Positions 364 through 8,182 of a DNA stretch of 8,182 nt are shown here, piece after piece; positions within the stretch are counted from its first letter, which is position 1; the number at the start of each line of letters is the position of its first letter. The notes beneath the pieces are model-generated. The model did no database searches. It was not told where the DNA came from and saw nothing but the letters and a program-made list of their open reading frames with translations. A program made the translations under genes and the position numbers. The stretch lies in IMG/VR virus record IMGVR_UViG_2695420732_000017, one strand, 5' to 3'. This stretch comes from a virus (taxonomy: Duplodnaviria; Heunggongvirae; Uroviricota; Caudoviricetes).

Positions 364-430
364 GTTCACAGATAAAATACTCTCCAGGAAACCCGGGGCG
401 GTTCAGTTTGCCAATTTTTGCGATATAAAT
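1..430 (+). mobile_element. Right-hand portion of an IS3-family insertion sequence; exact terminal inverted repeat not determinable from one end
   Basis: The transposase gene ends at 363 and an IS3-type terminal repeat normally follows within a few tens of bp. The composition switches to AT-rich by about 410-430. The boundary is approximate because the other IS end is not available to pair with. Confidence 0.45.
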
Positions 431-483
431 TTCAATGTCCGAAGAACCATTAATTGTTAATTGATTCTGTATAAGGTATTAAC

Positions 484-1581
484 ATGACAATTTCATATAT
501 TCCTATTCTGAAAGCGAAACGTTCTGAGTTATCAGCTTTATCGCAGCTATCCATTGAAAAGAAATCAAAAATTTTGCCATTACTCGAAATTGAACCAGTG
601 CCAATTGACCCTGATTCAGGTATTGCCTTAAAGAGTTATAACGAGACTCTTATAGAGTTCGGAAAGAAAGTCTCAAAATCTTGCTCAGATATGCAAGGTG
701 TTTATATTGATGGATTATTAATTGAAGAGCATTTTATTTCTCCTGAAGATCATTACCCTATAATAAATGCGGTTAATCAAGTTAGAGATATGGGGATAAG
801 AGTTATTCCTGTCAGTTCACCAACTCGCCCATCTAACTATAAAAGAGCGATTGATGAATTAATGCAGAATGAAATATGCTTGAGATTAACCACGTTAGAT
901 CTGGTTAACCCACAATTAATAACGCATTACATTAATCATCTGGGAATTCCTTTATCAAATATTGATATAATTATTGACTTAAGAGATGAGTTAACCGAGG
1001 ATAAAATTAATTCCGGCGAACTATATACTTTGGCAATGGGATTGATAAACAATCTGGCGCACCTCAATGAATACAGAAAAGTGATTCTTTCTGGGGGTTC
1101 ATTTCCTACAGATCTCAGTGATATTTCTGTTGGTCTATATTCTCAACCTCGAATCGAGTGGATTTTATGGCAGAGTTTAATGAATAGAAAAGAACTTGCC
1201 AGAAATGTGATTTATAGTGATTATGGAGTACAGCACCCCGACTTTAATAGGCTTTCGACGCGATTCCCTAGCGTATCTGCCAGCGTCAGATACTCTGGAG
1301 ATAATGACTTTTGGGTATTTCGAGGAAGAGTAGCTAATCGCTTTGGTTATGAACAATATGGTAAACATAGTGAGGATATTCTTGCTCATCGAGAATATTC
1401 AGGGCCTACATTCTGTGCGGGAGATAGAGACATAGAATATTATGCAAACGAGTATCAAGCCTACAAAGCCAATCCCTCTGGTAACTATAAATTTGGTAGC
1501 CCAGAGGTATGGCGTAGGATTGGGCAAAACCATCACATAACTAAGGTTGTTGAGCAACTCGCCACTCTTTACGGGCTTTAA
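484..1581 (+). CDS. Beta-protein-like (Pfam Beta_protein / NCBI sce7725-family-like) protein of unknown function, 365 aa
   Basis: ATG at 484 is the first start after an in-frame TAA (472-474), with an AAGG Shine-Dalgarno 7 nt upstream. Clean 365-codon ORF, strongly AT-rich (roughly one-third G+C by eye). The N-terminus TISYIPILKAKRSELSAL matches, from memory, the hallmark start of the Beta-protein / sce7725 family. The family call is unverified. Confidence 0.75.
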   Translation: MTISYIPILKAKRSELSALSQLSIEKKSKILPLLEIEPVPIDPDSGIALKSYNETLIEFGKKVSKSCSDMQGVYIDGLLIEEHFISPEDHYPIINAVNQVRDMGIRVIPVSSPTRPSNYKRAIDELMQNEICLRLTTLDLVNPQLITHYINHLGIPLSNIDIIIDLRDELTEDKINSGELYTLAMGLINNLAHLNEYRKVILSGGSFPTDLSDISVGLYSQPRIEWILWQSLMNRKELARNVIYSDYGVQHPDFNRLSTRFPSVSASVRYSGDNDFWVFRGRVANRFGYEQYGKHSEDILAHREYSGPTFCAGDRDIEYYANEYQAYKANPSGNYKFGSPEVWRRIGQNHHITKVVEQLATLYGL

Positions 1582-2119
1582 GTTTAACTCGAACAGCTTC
1601 ACGAAGCTCGCCAACATCCATACTATTGGCGAGTTTTGACCATAAGACGCGTTTAGGTTTATTTTTCAAATTCTGTAGCTCCCCTACATCACTTAATAGG
1701 GAAAGCAATTCATCTTTCCAAAGAAGCATTGTTAAGGAAAGTTTGTCCACTTGTGGATTCAACTTGCTAGTTCGAATTGTTTTTAAATGGATACCTTGCC
1801 GTGCACCTTGCGTAACTTGCTTTATCCCCCACCATGATGGAACTATGCTTAAAGCATCATAAAGATGGCAATCAGAGACAACCAAAGTTACTTTATCCAT
1901 CACTGATGAGTAATGTTGCACCTGCGCTGGTAATCTGAGCAAGTTATCACTCTTGCTCTTCAACTCATAACCATGTATAAGCCCATTGATCACTGCTATA
2001 TCAGCTCTGCTAGCCCCTAGATTCATCGTAAACTCATCAATGATTAGGGTGTCAGGATCTTTATGATGATCTCTCAGAATCTTGGCATGCACAGCCTTTC
2101 TTACATCAATGTCTCTCAT
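1541..2119 (-). CDS. PD-(D/E)xK nuclease-fold protein (sce7726-family-like), 192 aa
   Basis: Open frame on the minus strand with ATG at 2119-2117 and an in-frame stop six codons upstream; stop codon at 1543-1541. N-terminal motifs IIDEF (E29), RADIAV (D40) and GYELKS (E52-x-K54) have the spacing of a restriction-endonuclease-like PD-(D/E)xK core. AT-rich like its neighbour. Shine-Dalgarno is weak. Confidence 0.75.
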   Translation of the reverse strand: MRDIDVRKAVHAKILRDHHKDPDTLIIDEFTMNLGASRADIAVINGLIHGYELKSKSDNLLRLPAQVQHYSSVMDKVTLVVSDCHLYDALSIVPSWWGIKQVTQGARQGIHLKTIRTSKLNPQVDKLSLTMLLWKDELLSLLSDVGELQNLKNKPKRVLWSKLANSMDVGELREAVRVKLKARKEWRVAQQP

Positions 2120-2158
2120 ACCATAGTTGCGCTTTCATCGACTCTCTCAAGCCATGAT

Positions 2159-2167
2159 TCTATATCA
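2159..2167 (-). promoter_or_regulatory. Possible extended -10 element (TGaTATAGA) for an independent promoter of the nuclease-like gene
   Basis: On the minus strand the sequence TGATATAGAAT lies about 40 nt upstream of the ATG at 2119, inside a 305-bp ORF-free gap. No convincing -35 was found, so this is tentative. Confidence 0.3.
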
Positions 2168-2424
2168 TGGTTCGCATGAATGCCATTTGATATGACCAGT
2201 GGTTAAACATTGCACAGAAAAGTGGATGTGTATTTTAACAAAAGCAATGACGGCTAACCATGTTGGTATGTCGATAAAATGTTTCAACGTAAGCATTATC
2301 TGTTCCGCCCTTTCAGACGGCCTCCTGATGTTCTGAGGGTGCAGAATCCCTCCGGTTAAGGATTTAATAAAAATCGTTTCTGATTTAAATCTTCAGTATT
2401 TAGTTGTTAGTCGGTTTATAGCCT

Positions 2425-2736
2425 TTATGCTTCGGCCTTATTTCTCAGCCATACACAAACCGGGCCATCTTCGGTGTCATGTATTGAACCAATAAACCAT
2501 CCATTGCCCTCTGGTCGTTCCGGTTCCCATGCAGAAATATCAGCATCACACGCATCAAGGTCAGCACATCCTTCATCTCTGAAGCAGAGGACGTATTGAA
2601 GATTATTTTCCTCCATCCAGGCGTTAAACTCTTCCGTTGAAATATATTCCCGACCGTCACAGAATTTTTCATATTCAGGATGCGTCCAGCAGCCATATTC
2701 ATCACGTACTACTGGTATTTCTTTAATTTCATTCAT
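2425..2736 (-). CDS. Hypothetical acidic, Cys-containing prophage protein, 103 aa
   Basis: ATG at 2736 sits inside the sequence ATGAATGA, overlapping the stop of the upstream gene by 8 nt (translational coupling). G+C near half, like the prophage backbone. No recognisable domain. Confidence 0.7.
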   Translation of the reverse strand: MNEIKEIPVVRDEYGCWTHPEYEKFCDGREYISTEEFNAWMEENNLQYVLCFRDEGCADLDACDADISAWEPERPEGNGWFIGSIHDTEDGPVCVWLRNKAEA

Positions 2737-2983
2737 TTCTGTTCTCCCACGTTTTCAGACTTTCACCACAGAACGGACAAAATGAAACCCGAACTGGTAA
2801 TTTAGAAAATTCACCGGAACGCAACATCACAAAATCAGGACCGCGAGTTAAACTCTCATTCCAGATTTTGTATATCAGCAGACCTTTTCGCATCGTGTAT
2901 TCAGCATCATGCTCAAGGGACTTTGCCAGTGCTGCACATGGTTCTATCTTGTTGCCATTAACCTGGCATTTTGATTCACTCAC
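2729..2983 (-). CDS. Hypothetical small protein with a C-terminal CPFCG zinc-ribbon-like motif, 84 aa
   Basis: GTG start at 2983 overlaps the TGA of the upstream gene (GTGA) and is preceded by a strong GAGGAGG Shine-Dalgarno 7 nt upstream. Cys residues at positions 6, 16, 69 and 72. Confidence 0.65.
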   Translation of the reverse strand: MSESKCQVNGNKIEPCAALAKSLEHDAEYTMRKGLLIYKIWNESLTRGPDFVMLRSGEFSKLPVRVSFCPFCGESLKTWENRNE

Positions 2984-3402
2984 CGCACCACCTCCTCAAA
3001 ATTCCCCTGATAAAACGCCAGTACGCGCTGCATAACTTCGCTCTTCCGGCACTCGAGACAGATTATGTTCAGACGCCTGTCGTAGCGGCGTATTTCGCCA
3101 TCTGGTAATGACCAGATAAGGTCCGGATCAACCGCAGATGGTTTCTTCAGCTTTGCCCTTGAGAGTTTTTTGCGGGCATTTTGCCAGTCTTTACGAGCCT
3201 GTTCAGACGGGAATAACCCGTAGCCAGAATTGTATACATCGCCACTGGCAACCAGCTCTCTGGCCAGAACGCTCATCAGATATCTTGTTGCCCCAGTTTT
3301 AGTTTCCAGTTGTCGTAACGTCTCGCGCCCACTCTGGCGTACGAGTTCAACAACCTGCCCTTTAATTTTTTCCCGCTCTTCTTGTGTAAAAACTTTTGCC
3401 AC
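2980..3402 (-). CDS. Hypothetical prophage protein, 140 aa, basic
   Basis: GTG start at 3402 is preceded by AGGAGG with a 4-nt spacer. The gene lies directly downstream of the replication initiator in the same operon orientation. Confidence 0.7.
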   Translation of the reverse strand: MAKVFTQEEREKIKGQVVELVRQSGRETLRQLETKTGATRYLMSVLARELVASGDVYNSGYGLFPSEQARKDWQNARKKLSRAKLKKPSAVDPDLIWSLPDGEIRRYDRRLNIICLECRKSEVMQRVLAFYQGNFEEVVR

Positions 3403-3442
3403 AAGCCCTCCTGAAAGTTACCTCATGACCAGAAATTAACAC

Positions 3443-4405
3443 TTACCCCCTGAAGCCCGGCGGAATTTCAGTGTCCGGTTCAGAAATGTGATTCACGCAA
3501 CGCTGCGCAGGCGAACGCCCCAGGCGGATAACCAGTTCATCCCATTTTTCCCGGAGTTTTGCCGGACTCATGATGTTTTTTACCCAGAACGAATCCCGCT
3601 GGAGACGCCCAAACATTTCACAAATTTGTCTGTGAGTTCTGCCATCCAGCATCCGCATTGTGCGAACGTCATTGGCCCATGCTGTCCAGTTGGGTTCTTT
3701 CGGTCTAGTGATCTCGCCATCATAGCTGGCCGCCTGCTCGTAAAGACTCACGATTCGTCCCCAGATCCACTGTGCGCACACCAAATCTTCCTGACTTCCC
3801 CACTGGCGTTTTTTCGCACTGAACACAACCGCGTCAGGGTGTCGGGTTAAAAAATCCTGTTCAGCCGTCTGCGGGTCCGGTTGCGAAGCGTCCGGACAAG
3901 AAGATCTTTTATCTGACGGATCAGGTTTTAATACTGACGGATCGGGGTCAATCATCGCCCCCCTAATCGGCAGTTTTTTATCAACAGTTGATCCATCAAA
4001 ATTTGACGGGTCAACCGTTGAGGGGGCAATATTTGACGGGTCAACTGTTAACTGGTCATTTTTTGCCGGGCTAATTTTTCTTTTCGGTTTATATGACTCA
4101 CGCGCCGCCGCAGCTGCTGCTTCGAGTTTTTCCACATTAAGCCGATAGATATTGCTTACATTACGCCCACCGACCTTACGCTCTTCCTTCGTCAGCCAGC
4201 CCTCTTTCGCCAGTTCTGCAATAGCCGATTTCACTGTGGATTCACTTCTTGCACCGATCTGACGCCGGATAGTTTCAATGGCAGGCCATGACACACCCTC
4301 GTCATTGCTGTAGTCTGCAAGACGGGCCATAACCGCCACCCTGGATAAGATCATGCCGGTGAAGGCGCACCCTTCCCAGACAAGACCATGAAGCTTGCTG
4401 CTCAT
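3443..4405 (-). CDS. Phage replication initiator, lambda O-like architecture (N-terminal winged-helix/HTH, repeat-containing linker, C-terminal domain)
   Basis: 320-codon ORF from the ATG at 4405 (a GTG at 4420 is an alternative start), with a GGGGG Shine-Dalgarno just upstream. The N-terminal segment WPAIETIRRQIGARSESTVKSAIAELAKEGWL is HTH-like. The central region encodes repeated TVDPSN / DPDPS units from DNA direct repeats, as seen in lambda O where the origin lies inside the gene. Confidence 0.8.
   Translation of the reverse strand: MSSKLHGLVWEGCAFTGMILSRVAVMARLADYSNDEGVSWPAIETIRRQIGARSESTVKSAIAELAKEGWLTKEERKVGGRNVSNIYRLNVEKLEAAAAAARESYKPKRKISPAKNDQLTVDPSNIAPSTVDPSNFDGSTVDKKLPIRGAMIDPDPSVLKPDPSDKRSSCPDASQPDPQTAEQDFLTRHPDAVVFSAKKRQWGSQEDLVCAQWIWGRIVSLYEQAASYDGEITRPKEPNWTAWANDVRTMRMLDGRTHRQICEMFGRLQRDSFWVKNIMSPAKLREKWDELVIRLGRSPAQRCVNHISEPDTEIPPGFRG
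3912..4095. repeat. Putative replication origin: four direct iterons (core TGACGG(A/G)TC) plus an adjacent AT-rich stretch, inside the initiator gene
   Basis: TGACGGATC occurs at about 3914 and 3935; the longer TTTGACGGGTCAAC(C/T)GTT occurs at about 4001 and 4031. An AT-rich tract (about 4055-4095: cattttttgccgggctaatttttcttttcggtttatatga) lies beside them. Confidence 0.55.
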
Positions 4406-4427
4406 AAAACCCCCGAACACCGTGCTT

Positions 4428-4853
4428 TTAGTGCATCACCACAGCATTCCCTGCCGGGCCGCCGCGATTCATCTGGTCATACAAAACAACCGCTGACGCA
4501 ACAAAATCGTCGACATCCTTCACCAGCCGATCCCGCCGTTCGACAATCTCCCGGTAATACTCAGAGCTGTGACTGCGCATACGGGCCACCAGCAGAGGCG
4601 GCATTGCCTTTTCGATCGCCGGTAACAGAGCCTGAATTTTTTCAACAGCATCAGGGGTGTCTTTATCCAGCCAACGGAAAATTTTCTGTGTATTACGGGC
4701 CAGGGCTTCCGGATGGCTGTCGTCGTACAGTTCAGGGAACGTCATCCCCAGTTCGAAATAAGTCCGGGCTATTTCAGCTGCAGGAACTTTCTCACCATCA
4801 GGGTATGCCCAGGCATTCATCGCCATGCGGATGTGCTCATGTTTGATTTTCAT
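4428..4853 (-). CDS. ydaT: YdaT-like prophage protein (recalled as DUF1019 / Toxin_YdaT family), 141 aa
   Basis: The N-terminus MKIKHEHI and C-terminus ...VVMH match my recollection of Rac prophage YdaT. The gene overlaps the upstream ydaS-like gene by 17 nt. Confidence 0.7.
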   Translation of the reverse strand: MKIKHEHIRMAMNAWAYPDGEKVPAAEIARTYFELGMTFPELYDDSHPEALARNTQKIFRWLDKDTPDAVEKIQALLPAIEKAMPPLLVARMRSHSSEYYREIVERRDRLVKDVDDFVASAVVLYDQMNRGGPAGNAVVMH

Positions 4854-5160
4854 GAATCATTTGCCTCTTGATGCTTCGGGTATGATCGTTTTCGTCATTT
4901 GGTTGCTTCATCGACATATTCTGCGAATAACATGACGAGCGTCGTAAGTATGTCCAATCAACATCAGGACGAAGTTCTTCACACAGGACACCACCTTTTG
5001 TTGCTCGTTCAATCGCAGGACATCTCTCAGCAGGCAACTGACGTACACCTTTGATCCATTGATTTACGCTTGGAGGAGATACACCTAAAAGCCTAGCCAT
5101 TGCTGATTGCCCACCGACAACAGCACAAGCTCGTTTGAATGAATAGTTATCTTTTTTCAT
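4837..5160 (-). CDS. ydaS: YdaS-like Cro/CI-type HTH protein (Cro analogue), 107 aa
   Basis: ATG at 5160 is preceded by GGAG with an 8-nt spacer; the ORF track's longer version begins at a GTG at 5181 with no ribosome-binding site. The HTH segment QSAMARLLGVSPPSVNQWIKG is typical of YdaS-like proteins. The gene is divergent from the repressor gene. Confidence 0.75.
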   Translation of the reverse strand: MKKDNYSFKRACAVVGGQSAMARLLGVSPPSVNQWIKGVRQLPAERCPAIERATKGGVLCEELRPDVDWTYLRRSSCYSQNMSMKQPNDENDHTRSIKRQMIHENQT

Positions 5161-5187
5161 CGAATGAACTCCAAAAAACACGCAACA

Positions 5188-5231
5188 ATATTAGGCTTAG
5201 CCTAATACAATTGTCAATAGGCTATGCCTAA
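5188..5231 (-). promoter_or_regulatory. Leftward sigma70-type promoter with operator half-sites (TTAGGC...GCCTAA) for the ydaS-ydaT-replication operon
   Basis: Read on the minus strand: TTAGGCATAGCCTA, then TTGACA (-35, plus-strand 5212-5217), an 18-nt spacer containing TTAGGCTAAGCC, then TAATAT (-10, plus-strand 5188-5193). A third operator-like site (attgcctaa) sits at about 5248-5256, near the repressor gene start. Confidence 0.55.
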
Positions 5232-5284
5232 CACATCGAGAGTAGGGATTGCCTAACGCGATGCGCATAGGAGACTATTAAGCA

Positions 5285-5761
5285 ATGCTTAGTGGTAAAG
5301 ACTTAGGCCGAGCGATAGAGCAGGCCATTAACAAAAAAATTGCATCAGGAGCCGTCAAATCAAAGGCGGAAATCGCACGTCATTTCAAAGTCCAACCACC
5401 ATCAATCCATGACTGGATTAAGAAAGGTTCGATAAGTAAAGACAAACTTCCAGAACTATGGCGTTTCTTTTCTGATGTGGTTGGTCCAGAGCATTGGGGG
5501 CTTAACGAATACCCCATACCAACCCCATCCACTTCAGATACAAAAAGTGAACTTTTAGACATAAACAGCCTTTATCAAGCCGCCTCTGATGAAAAAAGAG
5601 CAATTGTGGCTTTCCTCTTATCTGGAAATGCTACGGAGCCTAGTTGGGTTGATCATGACGTTCGCGCCTACATTGCCGCAATGGAAATGAAGGTAGCTAA
5701 CTATCTGAAAAATCAAGAATCAAAACGGAAAAGCCAGAACATCACCAAGACAGGAACTTAA
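5285..5761 (+). CDS. Prophage repressor, HTH DNA-binding protein (RacR/DicA-type functional analogue), 158 aa
   Basis: ATG at 5285 with AGGAG 11 nt upstream. HTH segment KSKAEIARHFKVQPPSIHDWIKKGSIS. Divergent from the Cro-like gene and flanked by operator-bearing promoters. The length (158 aa) fits my recollection of RacR, but the assignment is not verified. Confidence 0.8.
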   Translation: MLSGKDLGRAIEQAINKKIASGAVKSKAEIARHFKVQPPSIHDWIKKGSISKDKLPELWRFFSDVVGPEHWGLNEYPIPTPSTSDTKSELLDINSLYQAASDEKRAIVAFLLSGNATEPSWVDHDVRAYIAAMEMKVANYLKNQESKRKSQNITKTGT

Positions 5762-5775
5762 ACTTATATGGTCCG

Positions 5776-5797
5776 ACGGGAAATTCCTAGTTCCCGT
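5776..5797 (+). terminator. Hairpin immediately after the repressor stop codon (7-bp perfect stem ACGGGAA/TTCCCGT, 8-nt loop); possible terminator or processing site
   Basis: A perfect inverted repeat lies 15 nt after the TAA at 5759-5761. There is no clear U-tract, so intrinsic-terminator function is uncertain. Confidence 0.3.
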
Positions 5798-5855
5798 TAG
5801 TTAACTCCTACTACCTCTCCCACAAACCATCACCTATTAGGTCGCGCCCAAATTA

Positions 5856-5898
5856 TTAGGCATAGCCTATTGACAAGTAATTAGGCATTTCCTATAGT
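5856..5898 (+). promoter_or_regulatory. Rightward near-consensus sigma70 promoter with two operator sites, driving the dicB-type operon
   Basis: TTAGGCATAGCCTA (5856-5869) abuts TTGACA (5870-5875); a 17-nt spacer contains TTAGGCATTTCC; then TATAGT (5893-5898). The 20-mer ttaggcatagcctattgaca is an exact inverted copy of 5212-5231. Confidence 0.6.
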
Positions 5899-6079
5899 TT
5901 TCCCATACCAACCCATCCCGTCCCACACAATACAGGGCAATACCTCGAGTTACCAGGCAGTGGTCAGGGGTTAAGTAGCCAGCCCGAGGCGTAAGAACAT
6001 GACGGCAGGGTTCAACTTTAATAACTATGCAGCAGGTTTTTGTTCCGCTACCCCGGCGTTAAGGGGAAATGAGGTCAGC

Positions 6080-6235
6080 ATGGATACTATCGATCTTGGC
6101 AACAGCGAATCTCTGGTATGTGGCGTGTTCCCCAACCAGGACGGTACGTTCACCGCGATGACGTATACCAAAAGCAAAACGTTTAAAACCGAATCTGGAG
6201 CGCGTCGCTGGCTGGAAAGAAATTCAGGTGGGTGA
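6080..6235 (+). CDS. ydfA: YdfA-like small prophage protein, 51 aa
   Basis: ATG at 6080 with GAGG 5 nt upstream. The ORF track's N-terminal extension back to 5999 lacks a ribosome-binding site. Size and position (first gene after the repressor-controlled promoter) match the Qin dicB operon order as I recall it: ydfA 51 aa, ydfB 42 aa, ydfC 72 aa. Confidence 0.6.
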   Translation: MDTIDLGNSESLVCGVFPNQDGTFTAMTYTKSKTFKTESGARRWLERNSGG

Positions 6236-6236
6236 T

Positions 6237-6365
6237 ATGGATTTCGACACAATCATGGAAAAGGCTTACGAAGAATACTTCGAAGGCCTTGCCGAAGGCG
6301 AAGAAGCTCTCAGCTTCAGCGAATTTAAACAGGCGCTTTCCAGCTCGGCAAAATCTAACGGCTGA
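6237..6365 (+). CDS. ydfB: YdfB-like small acidic protein, 42 aa
   Basis: ATG at 6237 is 1 nt after the ydfA-like stop (tightly coupled). The ORF was missed by the six-frame track because of its size. Translation: MDFDTIMEKAYEEYFEGLAEGEEALSFSEFKQALSSSAKSNG. Confidence 0.5.
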   Translation: MDFDTIMEKAYEEYFEGLAEGEEALSFSEFKQALSSSAKSNG

Positions 6366-6395
6366 TAAGCGAAAACAGCACCGCGAGGAATCAGT

Positions 6396-6614
6396 ATGCA
6401 GAAACGAGAACCCGTCATCATCGCGCCAGACTATACCGATGATGAACTTTATGAGTGGATGCACCAGAAAATTAATGCAGCGCAGGATCTGAAATGGGCC
6501 AATGAAGCCAGGGCTAAGCAGGCTGAAAATCTGTCCGCTCTGGAGCAGGATATCACCAATCTGGAAAAAGCAGCGGCATTAAGCATTGCCAGCATGATTA
6601 CATACCCGCGTTAA
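6396..6614 (+). CDS. ydfC: YdfC-like protein, 72 aa
   Basis: ATG at 6396 with GAGG 6-7 nt upstream. Its 72-aa size and position before the DicF locus match the Qin dicB operon. Confidence 0.6.
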   Translation: MQKREPVIIAPDYTDDELYEWMHQKINAAQDLKWANEARAKQAENLSALEQDITNLEKAAALSIASMITYPR

Positions 6615-6953
6615 TAGCTAACCAACGAAGCTAAGGTTGGTAATTAAGGAGTTCTCCACGGGTAAAGTGGAGTGCGTGCGCCGGACACGGGTGAACATCC
6701 GGCACTGACAGTTTACTGAAAGGATATTTCTCTGAAAAGTCAGAGCATAACGCGAAAGCGCACGGCGAGGTTGCTGGTTCATAGATAGCCTGTCGTTAAA
6801 TTTTCGTCGACCGTGCGCTTCCGGTTGTGGCACTCCGCGAAATGGCGCGGCGGTAAGTATGGCGGGGTTATTTCTTCCCCGTTGAGGACACCGGGTTGTC
6901 AGGTTGACCATACGCTTAAGTGACAACCCCGCTGCAACGCCCTCTGTTATCAA

Positions 6954-7012
6954 TTTTCTGGTGACGTTTGGCGGTATCAGTTTTACTCCGTGGCTGCTCT
7001 GCCGCCCTTTTT
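6954..7012 (+). ncRNA. dicF: DicF small regulatory RNA (Hfq-dependent antisense sRNA of the dicB operon) with its rho-independent terminator
   Basis: The sequence tttctggtgacgtttggcggtatcagttttactccgtggctgctctgccgcccttttt matches my recollection of E. coli DicF almost base for base. The 3' end has a GC stem (GGCGG...CCGCC) followed by TTTTT. It sits between the ydfC-like gene and dicB, as in Qin. Confidence 0.75.
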
Positions 7013-7181
7013 AAAGTGAATTTTGTGATGCGGTGAATGCGGCTATGCGCACGCGGAACAGTTAAAACCAAAAACAGTGTTATGGGTGGATTCTCTGTAT
7101 CCGGCGTTAATTGTTAACTGGTTAACGTCACCTGGAGGCACCAGGCACTGCATCACAAAATTCATTGTTGAGGACGCGATA

Positions 7182-7370
7182 ATGGAAACGTTATTACCAA
7201 ACGTTAATACGTCTGAAGGTTGTTTTGATATTGGTGTTCTGCTCAGTAACCGGGAGTTTACTGAAGATGCCATTAAGATGAGAAAATATGAACCTTATCT
7301 TCTCAATGATAATTCCATACTTTCCAGAATTGCCCTTCTTGAACTTGGTATTATCGGAGAACAGCAGTGA
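7182..7370 (+). CDS. dicB: DicB-like cell-division inhibitor (MinC-dependent), 62 aa
   Basis: ATG at 7182 with AGGA 7 nt upstream. The N-terminus METLLPNVNTSEGCF matches my recollection of DicB. The 62-aa size and position directly after DicF agree. Confidence 0.7.
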   Translation: METLLPNVNTSEGCFDIGVLLSNREFTEDAIKMRKYEPYLLNDNSILSRIALLELGIIGEQQ

Positions 7371-7555
7371 CTTCAGCGTTTGCACTGGTGATGACCGTTT
7401 TTCTTATAACGGGTGAGCCACAAAATGTGATTACCGGAATTTATGACAGTAAGTCATCCTGCATTCAGGTAAGGGACGAACAAAAAATCCCCGGTGAATG
7501 CCTCCCGTTAAAAAAAGTATTGCTGTACCTGAATAACGAAACGCCGGCTGGATAA
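7367..7555 (+). CDS. ydfD: YdfD-like small membrane protein (lysis-associated in Qin), about 62 aa
   Basis: GTG at 7367 overlaps the dicB TGA (GTGA coupling); an alternative ATG lies at 7391. Hydrophobic N-terminal segment AFALVMTVFLITG. Position after dicB matches Qin ydfD. Confidence 0.55.
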   Translation: MTSAFALVMTVFLITGEPQNVITGIYDSKSSCIQVRDEQKIPGECLPLKKVLLYLNNETPAG

Positions 7556-7650
7556 ACCTCCAGCCATATTAACGCCATACCAACGGATTAAAAATGCCAG
7601 CAATGGCAGGGATTTATTCATCCTTAAATCTGTCATGAGGTTAAAACAAA

Positions 7651-8182
7651 ATGAGTAAAGTCTTTATTTGCGCCGCTATTCCTGACGAACTGGCAACAAG
7701 GGAAGAAGGCGCTGTGGCTGTAGCCACAGCCATTGAAGCTGGCGACGAACGCCGTGCTCGAGCAAAATTTCACTGGCAGTTCCTGGAACATTATCCGGCT
7801 GCTCAGGACTGCGCTTATAAATTTATTGTCTGCGAGGATAAACCTGGCATACCCCGCCCTGCCCTCGATTCATGGGATGCTGAATATATGCAGGAAAACC
7901 GCTGGGATGAGGAGTCTGCTTCTTTTGTCCCGGTTGAGACTGAATCCGATCCGATGAACGTCACTTTTGACAAGCTGGCCCCTGAAGTACAGAACGCTGT
8001 CATGGTTAAGTTCGACACATGTGAAAACATCACCGTTGATATGGTGATTAGCGCACAGGAATTGTTGCAGGAAGACATGGCAACATTCGACGGACATATC
8101 GTTGAAGCGTTGATGAAAATGCCAGAAGTTAACGCCATGTATCCGGAGCTTAAGCTGCATGCCATCGGGTGGGTTAAGCATA
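7651..8182 (+). CDS. Hypothetical acidic prophage protein, 3' end beyond the window (at least 177 aa); possibly YdfE-like
   Basis: ATG at 7651 with GAGG 10 nt upstream. Hand translation (MSKVFICAAIPDELATREEG...) runs without a stop to the window end. The six-frame track omits it because it has no stop inside the window. Confidence 0.6.
   Translation, partial: MSKVFICAAIPDELATREEGAVAVATAIEAGDERRARAKFHWQFLEHYPAAQDCAYKFIVCEDKPGIPRPALDSWDAEYMQENRWDEESASFVPVETESDPMNVTFDKLAPEVQNAVMVKFDTCENITVDMVISAQELLQEDMATFDGHIVEALMKMPEVNAMYPELKLHAIGWVKH

Follow-up and report, generated by a model that had tools for sequence, protein, structure and literature searches.

A probable replication origin embedded in the HTH_36-type initiator gene of a lambdoid (Rac-like) E. 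coli prophage

In SPP1 (gene 38/oriL) and in lactococcal phages, the gene for the repeat-binding protein itself contains the repeats of the origin, and in phage lambda the iterons of the origin are 19 bp long and lie ∼20–24 bp apart. Inverted-repeat iterons and an AT-rich tract occupy the central part of the O gene in lambda and in Shiga toxin (Stx) phages, where extra iterons add residues to the O protein, and the lambda iteron region has the potential to form hairpins or cruciforms (PMC7466680). In phage phi80, for which we took the gp15-binding sites from the GenBank annotation, four such sites lie within gene 15, ∼21 bp apart; they specify a peptide repeat, FPKTG, and precede a ...AAAAGATCTTC... 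stretch similar to one in the DNA described here. That DNA is a stretch of 8,182 nucleotides (IMG/VR record IMGVR_UViG_2695420732_000017; hereafter the window) from a Rac-like lambdoid prophage of E. coli, in which the initiator gene belongs to the early-right operon. The gene occupies 3443–4420 on the minus strand and encodes 325 residues from a GTG at 4420 in the list of open reading frames (ORFs), or 320 residues from the RefSeq start, an ATG at 4405. Repeats inside the gene, together with an adjoining AT-rich block, make positions 3895–4066 the probable replication origin of the prophage, lying within the gene of its own initiator, and from the sequence evidence we put the probability of this reading at roughly 0.8. 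The repeats themselves are very likely the initiator’s own binding sites.

A first-pass annotation, made from the letters of the window, had drawn attention to four copies of TGACGG(A/G)TC, to two near-identical 20-mers and to TVDPSN and DPDPS peptide units encoded by the same DNA in the linker of the initiator, and each of these observations holds. TGACGGRTC occurs exactly four times in the window, at 3914, 3935, 4004 and 4034, always on the plus strand, against a mean of 0.09 in dinucleotide-preserving shuffles, none of which (0/200) reaches four. The 20-mers at 3996–4015 (TCAAAATTTGACGGGTCAAC) and 4026–4045 (GCAATATTTGACGGGTCAAC) agree at 18/20 positions, and the repeats, which lie inside the initiator ORF, encode TVDPSN and DPDPS..DPS peptides in a linker that is disordered in the AlphaFold2 model. 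Less apt was the choice of the 9-mer as the repeat: although its four copies are present, the real unit is 15 bp long and has a palindromic core, so that the 9-mers at 4004 and 4034 mark places where units of an array meet, while those at 3914 and 3935 are part of a distinct AT-rich block containing GATC sites.

Self-comparison of the repeat region returns periods of 15 and 30 and the strongest periodicity in the window. A repeat search finds five in-register copies at 15-nt spacing in 3981–4070, Tandem Repeats Finder reports period 15 and period 30, and self-identity at lags 15/30 reaches its window-wide peak at 3979, with values of 0.64/0.70 compared with a mean of 0.27 (standard deviation 0.06). 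The iteron array so delimited comprises six 15-bp units at 3977–4066 and is, like the block beside it, a feature without strand; on the coding (minus) strand its units read GCAAAAAATGACCAG, TTAACAGTTGACCCG, TCAAATATTGCCCCC, TCAACGGTTGACCCG, TCAAATTTTGATGGA and TCAACTGTTGATAAA. The unit at 4052–4066 is degenerate; the other five carry an 11-bp palindromic core of the form YCAAnnnTTGA (4041–4051, 4026–4036, 4011–4021, 3996–4006 and 3981–3991), the cores being spaced by exactly 15 bp. The pattern TCAAnnnTTGA is present on both strands at the cores beginning at 3981, 3996 and 4011, and on one strand only at those beginning at 4026 and 4041.

Separated from the array, an isolated and degenerate extra unit (3944–3958; GCGATGATTGACCCC on the coding strand) abuts the AT-rich block at 3895–3943, which is the candidate DNA-unwinding element. 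The block contains GATC sites at 3903, 3919 and 3940 and two copies of GATCCGTCAG, at 3913–3922 and 3934–3943, that read CTGACGGATC on the plus strand. G+C content in the window falls to 35–37.5% (40-nt minima) at 3900–3939, 3970–4009 and 4040–4099, compared with 50–60% in the flanks. Inspection of the block by eye, with no formal scan made, revealed no convincing DnaA box or IHF site. Array, isolated unit and block all lie within the predicted disordered linker that separates the winged helix of the initiator from its C-terminal domain.

To place the repeats among relatives we used a comparison set of 73 homologous genes, drawn from species-representative genomes plus phage SfIV, in which two types of N-terminal domain can be distinguished, the window type (8 genes) and the SfIV type (65 genes). 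By this comparison the units are kept as DNA across the 73 genes, beyond the needs of coding, and not as protein. The SfIV-type array has the form (TCA AAA TCT GAC NNN)n, and 301 of its units were counted in the 65 genes. The serine at unit position 1 is encoded by TCA in 273/301 cases (91%) as against 17% elsewhere in the same genes, the lysine at position 2 by AAA in all of 196 (100% versus 62%), the serine at position 3 by TCT in 199/227 (88% versus 10%) and the aspartate at position 4 by GAC in 81% (versus 46%), while position 5 is a free codon for A, P, T, G, K, R or V. The window-type unit, YYAAnnrTTGAsSSS, also occurs in genes of Edwardsiella, Erwinia, Mixta and Morganella, with varying amino acids. 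Its 4-nt spacer alternates between CCCC and GGGG, by which the peptide flips between Asp-Pro and Glu-Gly and the DNA retains one site in two orientations; in the units of Providencia and Proteus, a single-base change from GAC to GTC replaces Asp by Val. The position of the isolated unit is occupied in relatives by TCAATGGTTGACCCC (window type) or by a conserved unit, TTTGACCCGTCAGAATCTGG (SfIV type).

Codons fixed in this way, and peptides that flip where the DNA motif is kept, are patterns that constraint at the protein level would not give. They bear directly on the simplest alternative, namely that the repeats are only a low-complexity disordered linker of Ser, Asp, Pro and Lys, grown by replication slippage and kept for its flexibility or for short peptide motifs, with DNA that has no function of its own. 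The region is indeed predicted to be disordered, DPS-like peptides recur in it, and copy number changes between alleles in steps of five residues, showing that slippage or unequal exchange occurs. Such a linker would nevertheless not account for synonymous positions that hardly vary between genera within units and block yet are scrambled in the folded N-terminal domain, for a sole free codon that is precisely the one in the spacer of the DNA motif, or for radical changes of peptide at kept DNA sites, and we consider this alternative highly improbable. On our reading, the repeated peptides TVDPSN and DPS are a by-product of translating the DNA sites in frame.

The block adjoining the array shows the same behaviour. 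Its consensus, GGgGATCCGTCAGTAAatTCAA..GAtCCAtcAGatAAAAAA, is recognisable at the nucleotide level in almost all of the ∼73 genes of both types, and two of its GATC sites are conserved family-wide. Among 47 non-redundant genes, the fraction of identical residues encoded by the same codon is 0.88 in the GATC block versus 0.43 in the N-terminal domain, a strong codon conservation although the block encodes part of the linker that AlphaFold2 predicts to be disordered. The AT-rich tract that the first-pass annotation had placed next to the repeats is likewise a family trait: the lowest-G+C 40-nt stretch of the gene falls just past the repeats, centred ∼29 nt into the block, in 58/72 genes (mean G+C 32%), the dip in the window being a modest one. 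No ORF of at least 40 residues except the initiator overlaps 3890–4100, so an overlapping gene is not the cause of the nucleotide conservation. Many relatives carry a gene for a phage Dam (PF05869) or MT-A70 adenine methyltransferase directly after the initiator (for instance L024 3870–4724, L018 4002–4700, L073 3978–4550 and L042 4023–4595), and the conserved GATC sites together with these neighbouring genes may link phage methylation to control of the origin.

Conservation of nucleotides could also reflect a hairpin in mRNA or single-stranded DNA, acting for example as a translation pause between domains or in mRNA stability. Single-strand folding is in fact far better than chance, with z = −4.9 for the window (3895–4070, minus strand) and z = −5.4 for the SfIV equivalent (L002 4285–4460), and 0/200 shuffles as good in either. 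Any array of palindromes folds well, however, and tandem palindromes do so automatically, as reported for the lambda iterons (PMC7466680), so these z-scores cannot discriminate. Conservation moreover includes positions that are unpaired in the predicted folds, as well as the AT-rich GATC block; array length and register vary among relatives, with no fixed long-range pairing kept; and the match between repeat type and type of DNA-binding domain, described below, has no rationale at the RNA level. We therefore give the hairpin explanation very little credence. That both arrays fold into one long hairpin points to a higher-order dyad symmetry and to cruciform potential.

Recognition helix and wing sequences separate exactly with the two repeat types: all of the 8 genes with a window-type helix and wing carry mainly YCAAnnnTTGA units, and all of the 65 with an SfIV-type helix and wing carry mainly TCAAAATCTGAC units. 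The association also survives recombination of the rest of the gene. N-terminal domain, array and block are found joined to at least four different, unrelated C-terminal modules, with the junction always after the block, and the mosaics P0019 and P0071, as well as many loci with other C-terminal domains, retain the N-terminal domain with its repeats. Beyond the gene, the flanking genes differ widely among relatives (PerC, Dam, MT-A70, KilA-N, and lambda P or DnaC-like genes downstream), and the repeats stay with the N-terminal domain.

This persistence also bears on a third possibility, that the repeats are bound by a different protein or for a different purpose, such as initiator autoregulation or a roadblock, the YdaT/CII-like protein, the DUF977 protein or a host factor, and that the origin lies elsewhere in the prophage. 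Plasmid iterons commonly double in autoregulation, and the neighbouring genes encode DNA-binding proteins, DUF977 and a YdaT-like one. The flanking genes vary widely, though, while the repeats keep to the N-terminal domain, and the layout, in which an AT-rich GATC block comes after the iterons, is that of an origin and matches phi80 at the same place. We regard this explanation as unlikely and favour the reading of the array and block as an origin recognised by its own initiator.

An AlphaFold2 model of the initiator, built from a 32-sequence alignment, contains an N-terminal winged-helix domain (residues 8–109; 4094–4399, minus strand) of helices and a beta-hairpin wing, which is presumed to be the reader of the repeats. 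Residues 111–179 are predicted to be disordered (predicted local distance difference test score, pLDDT, <50), as is the C-terminal tail, and between them lies a confidently modelled C-terminal domain (residues 183–300, pLDDT 85–95; 3521–3874, minus strand). In BLASTP this domain is 36% identical over 124 residues to the C-terminal domain of phi80 gp15 (E 4e-26), and we presume that it is the helicase-recruitment side of the initiator. All that Foldseek retrieved from the PDB were generic winged-helix structures at weak E-values, the best for the N-terminal domain being regulators of the PadR/MarR type (E 5e-3 to 3e-2), and nothing informative for the C-terminal domain. In a Pfam scan with a cut-off of E ≤ 0.01 the initiator matches HTH_36 (E 2.2e-6), and PHROG 391, ‘replication initiation O-like’, matches it over its full length (E 1.6e-114, residues 6–325 on profile positions 1–298/298).

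How far the locus resembles lambda can now be stated. The first-pass annotation had equated it with the arrangement of lambda O and ori-lambda, and as a layout, an origin within the initiator gene, this is supported by the DNA-level conservation, the co-inheritance of N-terminal domain and repeats, the position of the phi80 sites and the AT-rich flank; judged by its layout, the arrangement is the lambda O/ori design, occurring within PHROG 391. As in lambda and the Stx phages 933W and P27, the predicted origin is placed centrally within the initiator gene, with tandem inverted-repeat iterons and an AT-rich flank, and the number of iterons varies between phages, adding residues to the protein. 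An N-terminal part that binds the sites and a C-terminal part that recruits the helicase loader are common to both, although here they are presumed; both have hairpin or cruciform potential, and a lambda P family gene follows the initiator in some relatives of the window gene. The comparison does not extend to the protein family. The N-terminal domain is HTH_36 and has no match to the lambda O model, and we rejected membership of the lambda O family (Phage_rep_O), since Pfam gives only HTH_36 and a weak DnaD_N match. Further differences from lambda are the units 15 bp apart with 11-bp cores, the lack of a P gene next to the initiator, and the DnaT-like tail of the window protein.

In phi80 gene 15 the C-terminal domain is homologous to that of the window protein, the annotated iterons stand at the equivalent position relative to that domain, and an AT-rich ...AGTATTAAAAGATCTTC... 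after the sites resembles the ...CAGTATTAAAACCTGATCCGTCAGATAAAAGATCTTC... of the window. The N-terminal domains are by contrast unrelated in sequence (gp15 aligns via the C-terminal domain only), gene 15 has a P-like gene 14 downstream, and its protein ends in a tail of the DFNNTDW type where the window protein has IPPGFRG. Genes of Providencia and Proteus (L013–L019 and L021) share with phi80 gene 15 (L003 11770–11810), almost identically, the stretch TCGTCsCAGAATTCTGACGAATCC, ∼60–100 nt past the GATC block, where it encodes SSQNSDESSD in Providencia/Proteus versus SSENSDESSD in phi80. This near-identity after the AT-rich block indicates that homology to phi80 begins inside the origin region.

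The window protein shares its family with the PHROG 391 proteins of SfIV, SfII and SfV, annotated as ‘primosomal’ or ‘replication protein O’, and with the HTH_36 proteins encoded in the ‘Eru’ units of Stx phages. SfIV gp41 is 57% identical to it over the full length and has a 15-nt periodic array at the same place; SfIV-type phages differ in having the other N-terminal subtype, another unit (TCAAAATCTGAC) and the peptide SKSDxSK. Isolated phages that carry the initiator gene are SfIV, SfII, SKA5 and PhiR49_1. In the papers on SfIV (PMC3851460) and on the Eru units (PMC8951638) the genes are described only as replication genes, with no origin mentioned, and we found no description of an origin or of repeats for the HTH_36/PHROG 391 family in the Stx-phage Eru papers or the SfIV genome paper. 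Matches of initiator residues 201–307 to the PHROG families ‘DnaD-like helicase loader’ and ‘replisome organizer’ hint at a distant relationship to the replisome-organizer genes of Gram-positive phages, from which the present system differs in hosts, repeat sequences and partner proteins.

The first-pass annotation had also counted on helper genes downstream of the initiator, but none is present in the window: DUF977 comes next, 40 nt downstream, and no helicase-loader gene (lambda P or DnaC-like) lies between the two. A DnaC/IstB-like gene is found at this place in 57/82 close relatives, and the remaining 25/82, like the window, are without it. At the junction itself (3403–3442), the DnaC-like gene of the 57 close E. 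coli relatives is usually accompanied by a DUF1627 gene, and the window and the 25 others are without this ∼1.5 kb. Farther afield, a gene of the lambda P family (Pfam PF06992, E 1e-50 to 1e-62) follows the initiator in several relatives, among them Erwinia and Morganella, where the initiator is of the window type, and Lonsdalea, where it is of the SfIV type; these initiator and lambda P pairs are classical O–P pairs. No helicase-loader gene is annotated beside the initiator of SfIV, and since SfIV is an isolated phage, absence of an adjacent loader need not be fatal.

The initiator ends in 21 residues (residues 305–325; 3446–3508, minus strand; AQRCVNHISEPDTEIPPGFRG) that are nearly identical to the C-terminal 21 of E. 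coli DnaT (primosomal protein I). A phmmer search of the PDB aligns the tail end to end with DnaT residues 159–179, with 15/21 identical and both sequences at the extreme C-terminus, and positions 159–179 of the NCBIfam DnaT model also match it. The rest of the protein is unrelated to DnaT, which is not an origin-binding initiator, and the tail looks like mimicry of a host primosome protein. Across relatives, the type of tail co-varies with the downstream gene (L005 3948–4667, L008 3990–4739, L064 3831–4565, L062 3887–4633, L165 2644–3390): WNSPEAWENTL and DFxNTDW tails accompany lambda P family genes, and IPxGF-type tails accompany DnaC/IstB-like ATPases or no loader. A narrower association, of the IPxGFRG tail with absence of a loader, was dropped, since a DnaC-like gene is present in close E. 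coli relatives that share this tail.

In a structural study (PMC13377028), how the DnaT-containing preprimosome recruits DnaB/DnaC is stated as unknown, and no role is described for the C-terminal tail of DnaT. A tentative and rather doubtful extension of our interpretation is that the tail might be a docking motif by which the origin-bound initiator captures DnaC or DnaB–DnaC (or PriA), imitating the host replication-restart primosome in place of the lambda-P-type route, and that the apparently conserved ‘DPSV..DPS’ motif of the linker might merely reflect an unwinding element, sensitive to Dam and SeqA, that initiators have in common even where their other domains differ. Were this true, the phage tail would point to the DnaT surface that recruits the helicase. 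The DnaT-like tail in any case offers a handle on DnaB/DnaC recruitment.

In the mechanism that we propose, loss of the RacR repressor would allow transcription of the ydaS–ydaT–initiator operon, and with it of the origin. The palindromic units would be occupied by dimers of the N-terminal winged helix, giving a nucleoprotein assembly that resembles the lambda O-some, next to which the AT-rich GATC block would melt; the conserved GATC sites would probably let Dam methylation and SeqA modulate this step. DnaB would then be brought in by the C-terminal domain and the DnaT-like tail through a loader of the DnaC type. In most close relatives this recruitment would use the phage’s DnaC-like loader, and in the window copy and SfIV the DnaC of the host.

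Several observations weigh against an origin at 3895–4066, or against one that is active in this copy. For no member of HTH_36/PHROG 391 did we find binding, footprint or replication data in the literature. The exact match between N-terminal domain and repeat type amounts to few independent events, as it reflects one deep split plus minor variants, and the phi80 iterons that stand at the equivalent position have a different sequence and a spacing of ∼21 bp versus 15 bp in the window. The AT-rich tract of the window copy is short and, with its 40-nt minima of 35–37.5% G+C, moderately AT-rich, and the DnaC-like gene found in 57 of the 82 close relatives is missing. The window allele is moreover a minority form, which compared with the commonest E. 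coli allele carries two substitutions at conserved positions of the array: one, at 4052–4054, changes a spacer from CCG to CAG and the peptide from NDP to NDQ, and the other, in the core at 4026–4036, changes GAC to GCC, hence TTGAC to TTGCC and NIDPS to NIAPS. Finally, the nearly identical prophage at tRNA-Ser/mtfA of E. coli O103 strain ML775 (CP193495, ∼1.96–2.01 Mb), to which window bases 405–8182 are 100% identical, has a frameshifted integrase, although it keeps its terminase, portal, capsid and lysis genes. Given the two array substitutions, the missing DnaC-like gene and the ML775 integrase frameshift, activity of the window origin is uncertain, and the substitutions may represent early decay of the origin. 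Other E. coli alleles are shorter by exactly one 15-nt unit or by one 21-nt GATCCGTCAG repeat.

A plasmid search for replicons depending on the initiator gene gave as its best candidate NZ_CP148542.1 (L165), a 16-kb circular ‘plasmid’ record that spans such a prophage from cI to lysis, with the initiator at 1660–2637 and no replicon type listed. The frame of this initiator breaks exactly in the GATC block, probably through sequencing errors, possibly nanopore errors at methylated GATC. We did not take the record as evidence of replication; the circle may have arisen in assembly or be a segment that was amplified or excised.

As a design this is lambda biology of the textbook kind, and for the HTH_36/PHROG 391 family the papers searched describe no origin. 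Members had previously been annotated only as ‘helix-turn-helix protein’ or ‘primosomal protein’, and our proposal assigns a concrete origin, defined by its units, their spacing and a candidate unwinding block, to a family of initiators that is widespread among the temperate phages and prophages of enterobacteria, including the serotype-converting phages of Shigella. The initiator gene is found at ≥80% of its length in 1515/5426 complete E. coli genomes, where it is labelled ‘helix-turn-helix domain-containing protein’. The arrays also provide a case of dual coding that can be quantified, in which sites for DNA binding would dictate the peptide, and they caution against taking conserved motifs in disordered linkers as features of the protein.

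Upstream of the initiator, in the same early-right operon, lie a YdaS/Cro-like gene (4837–5181, minus strand; Pfam YdaS_toxin/P22_Cro) and a YdaT/CII-like gene (4428–4853, minus strand; Pfam YdaT_toxin, and PHROG 163 ‘CII-like transcriptional activator’), the pair spanning 4428–5181, and transcription of the operon from these genes passes through the putative origin. The prophage repressor gene racR, so annotated in identical E. coli loci, is divergently transcribed (5285–5761, plus strand). The DUF977/Ren-like gene directly downstream of the initiator occupies 2980–3402 on the minus strand (Pfam DUF977, E 1.2e-29; PHROG 142).

At the other end of the window, bases 1–404 fall outside the match to the ML775 prophage and encode the C-terminal end of a transposase-like ORF (16–363). 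As these bases are unmatched in ML775 and contain that ORF, the strain from which the window derives probably has an insertion sequence at this point. Beside them lies a convergent gene pair (484–1581, plus strand, and 1541–2119, minus strand) with PADLOC matches to PD-Lambda-2_C/‘beta’ (E 1.8e-41) and ‘cll’, and an NCBIfam match to sce7726 (E 1.7e-56); the pair is probably an anti-phage defence cassette carried by the prophage, with the hokD side on one flank and the early genes on the other.

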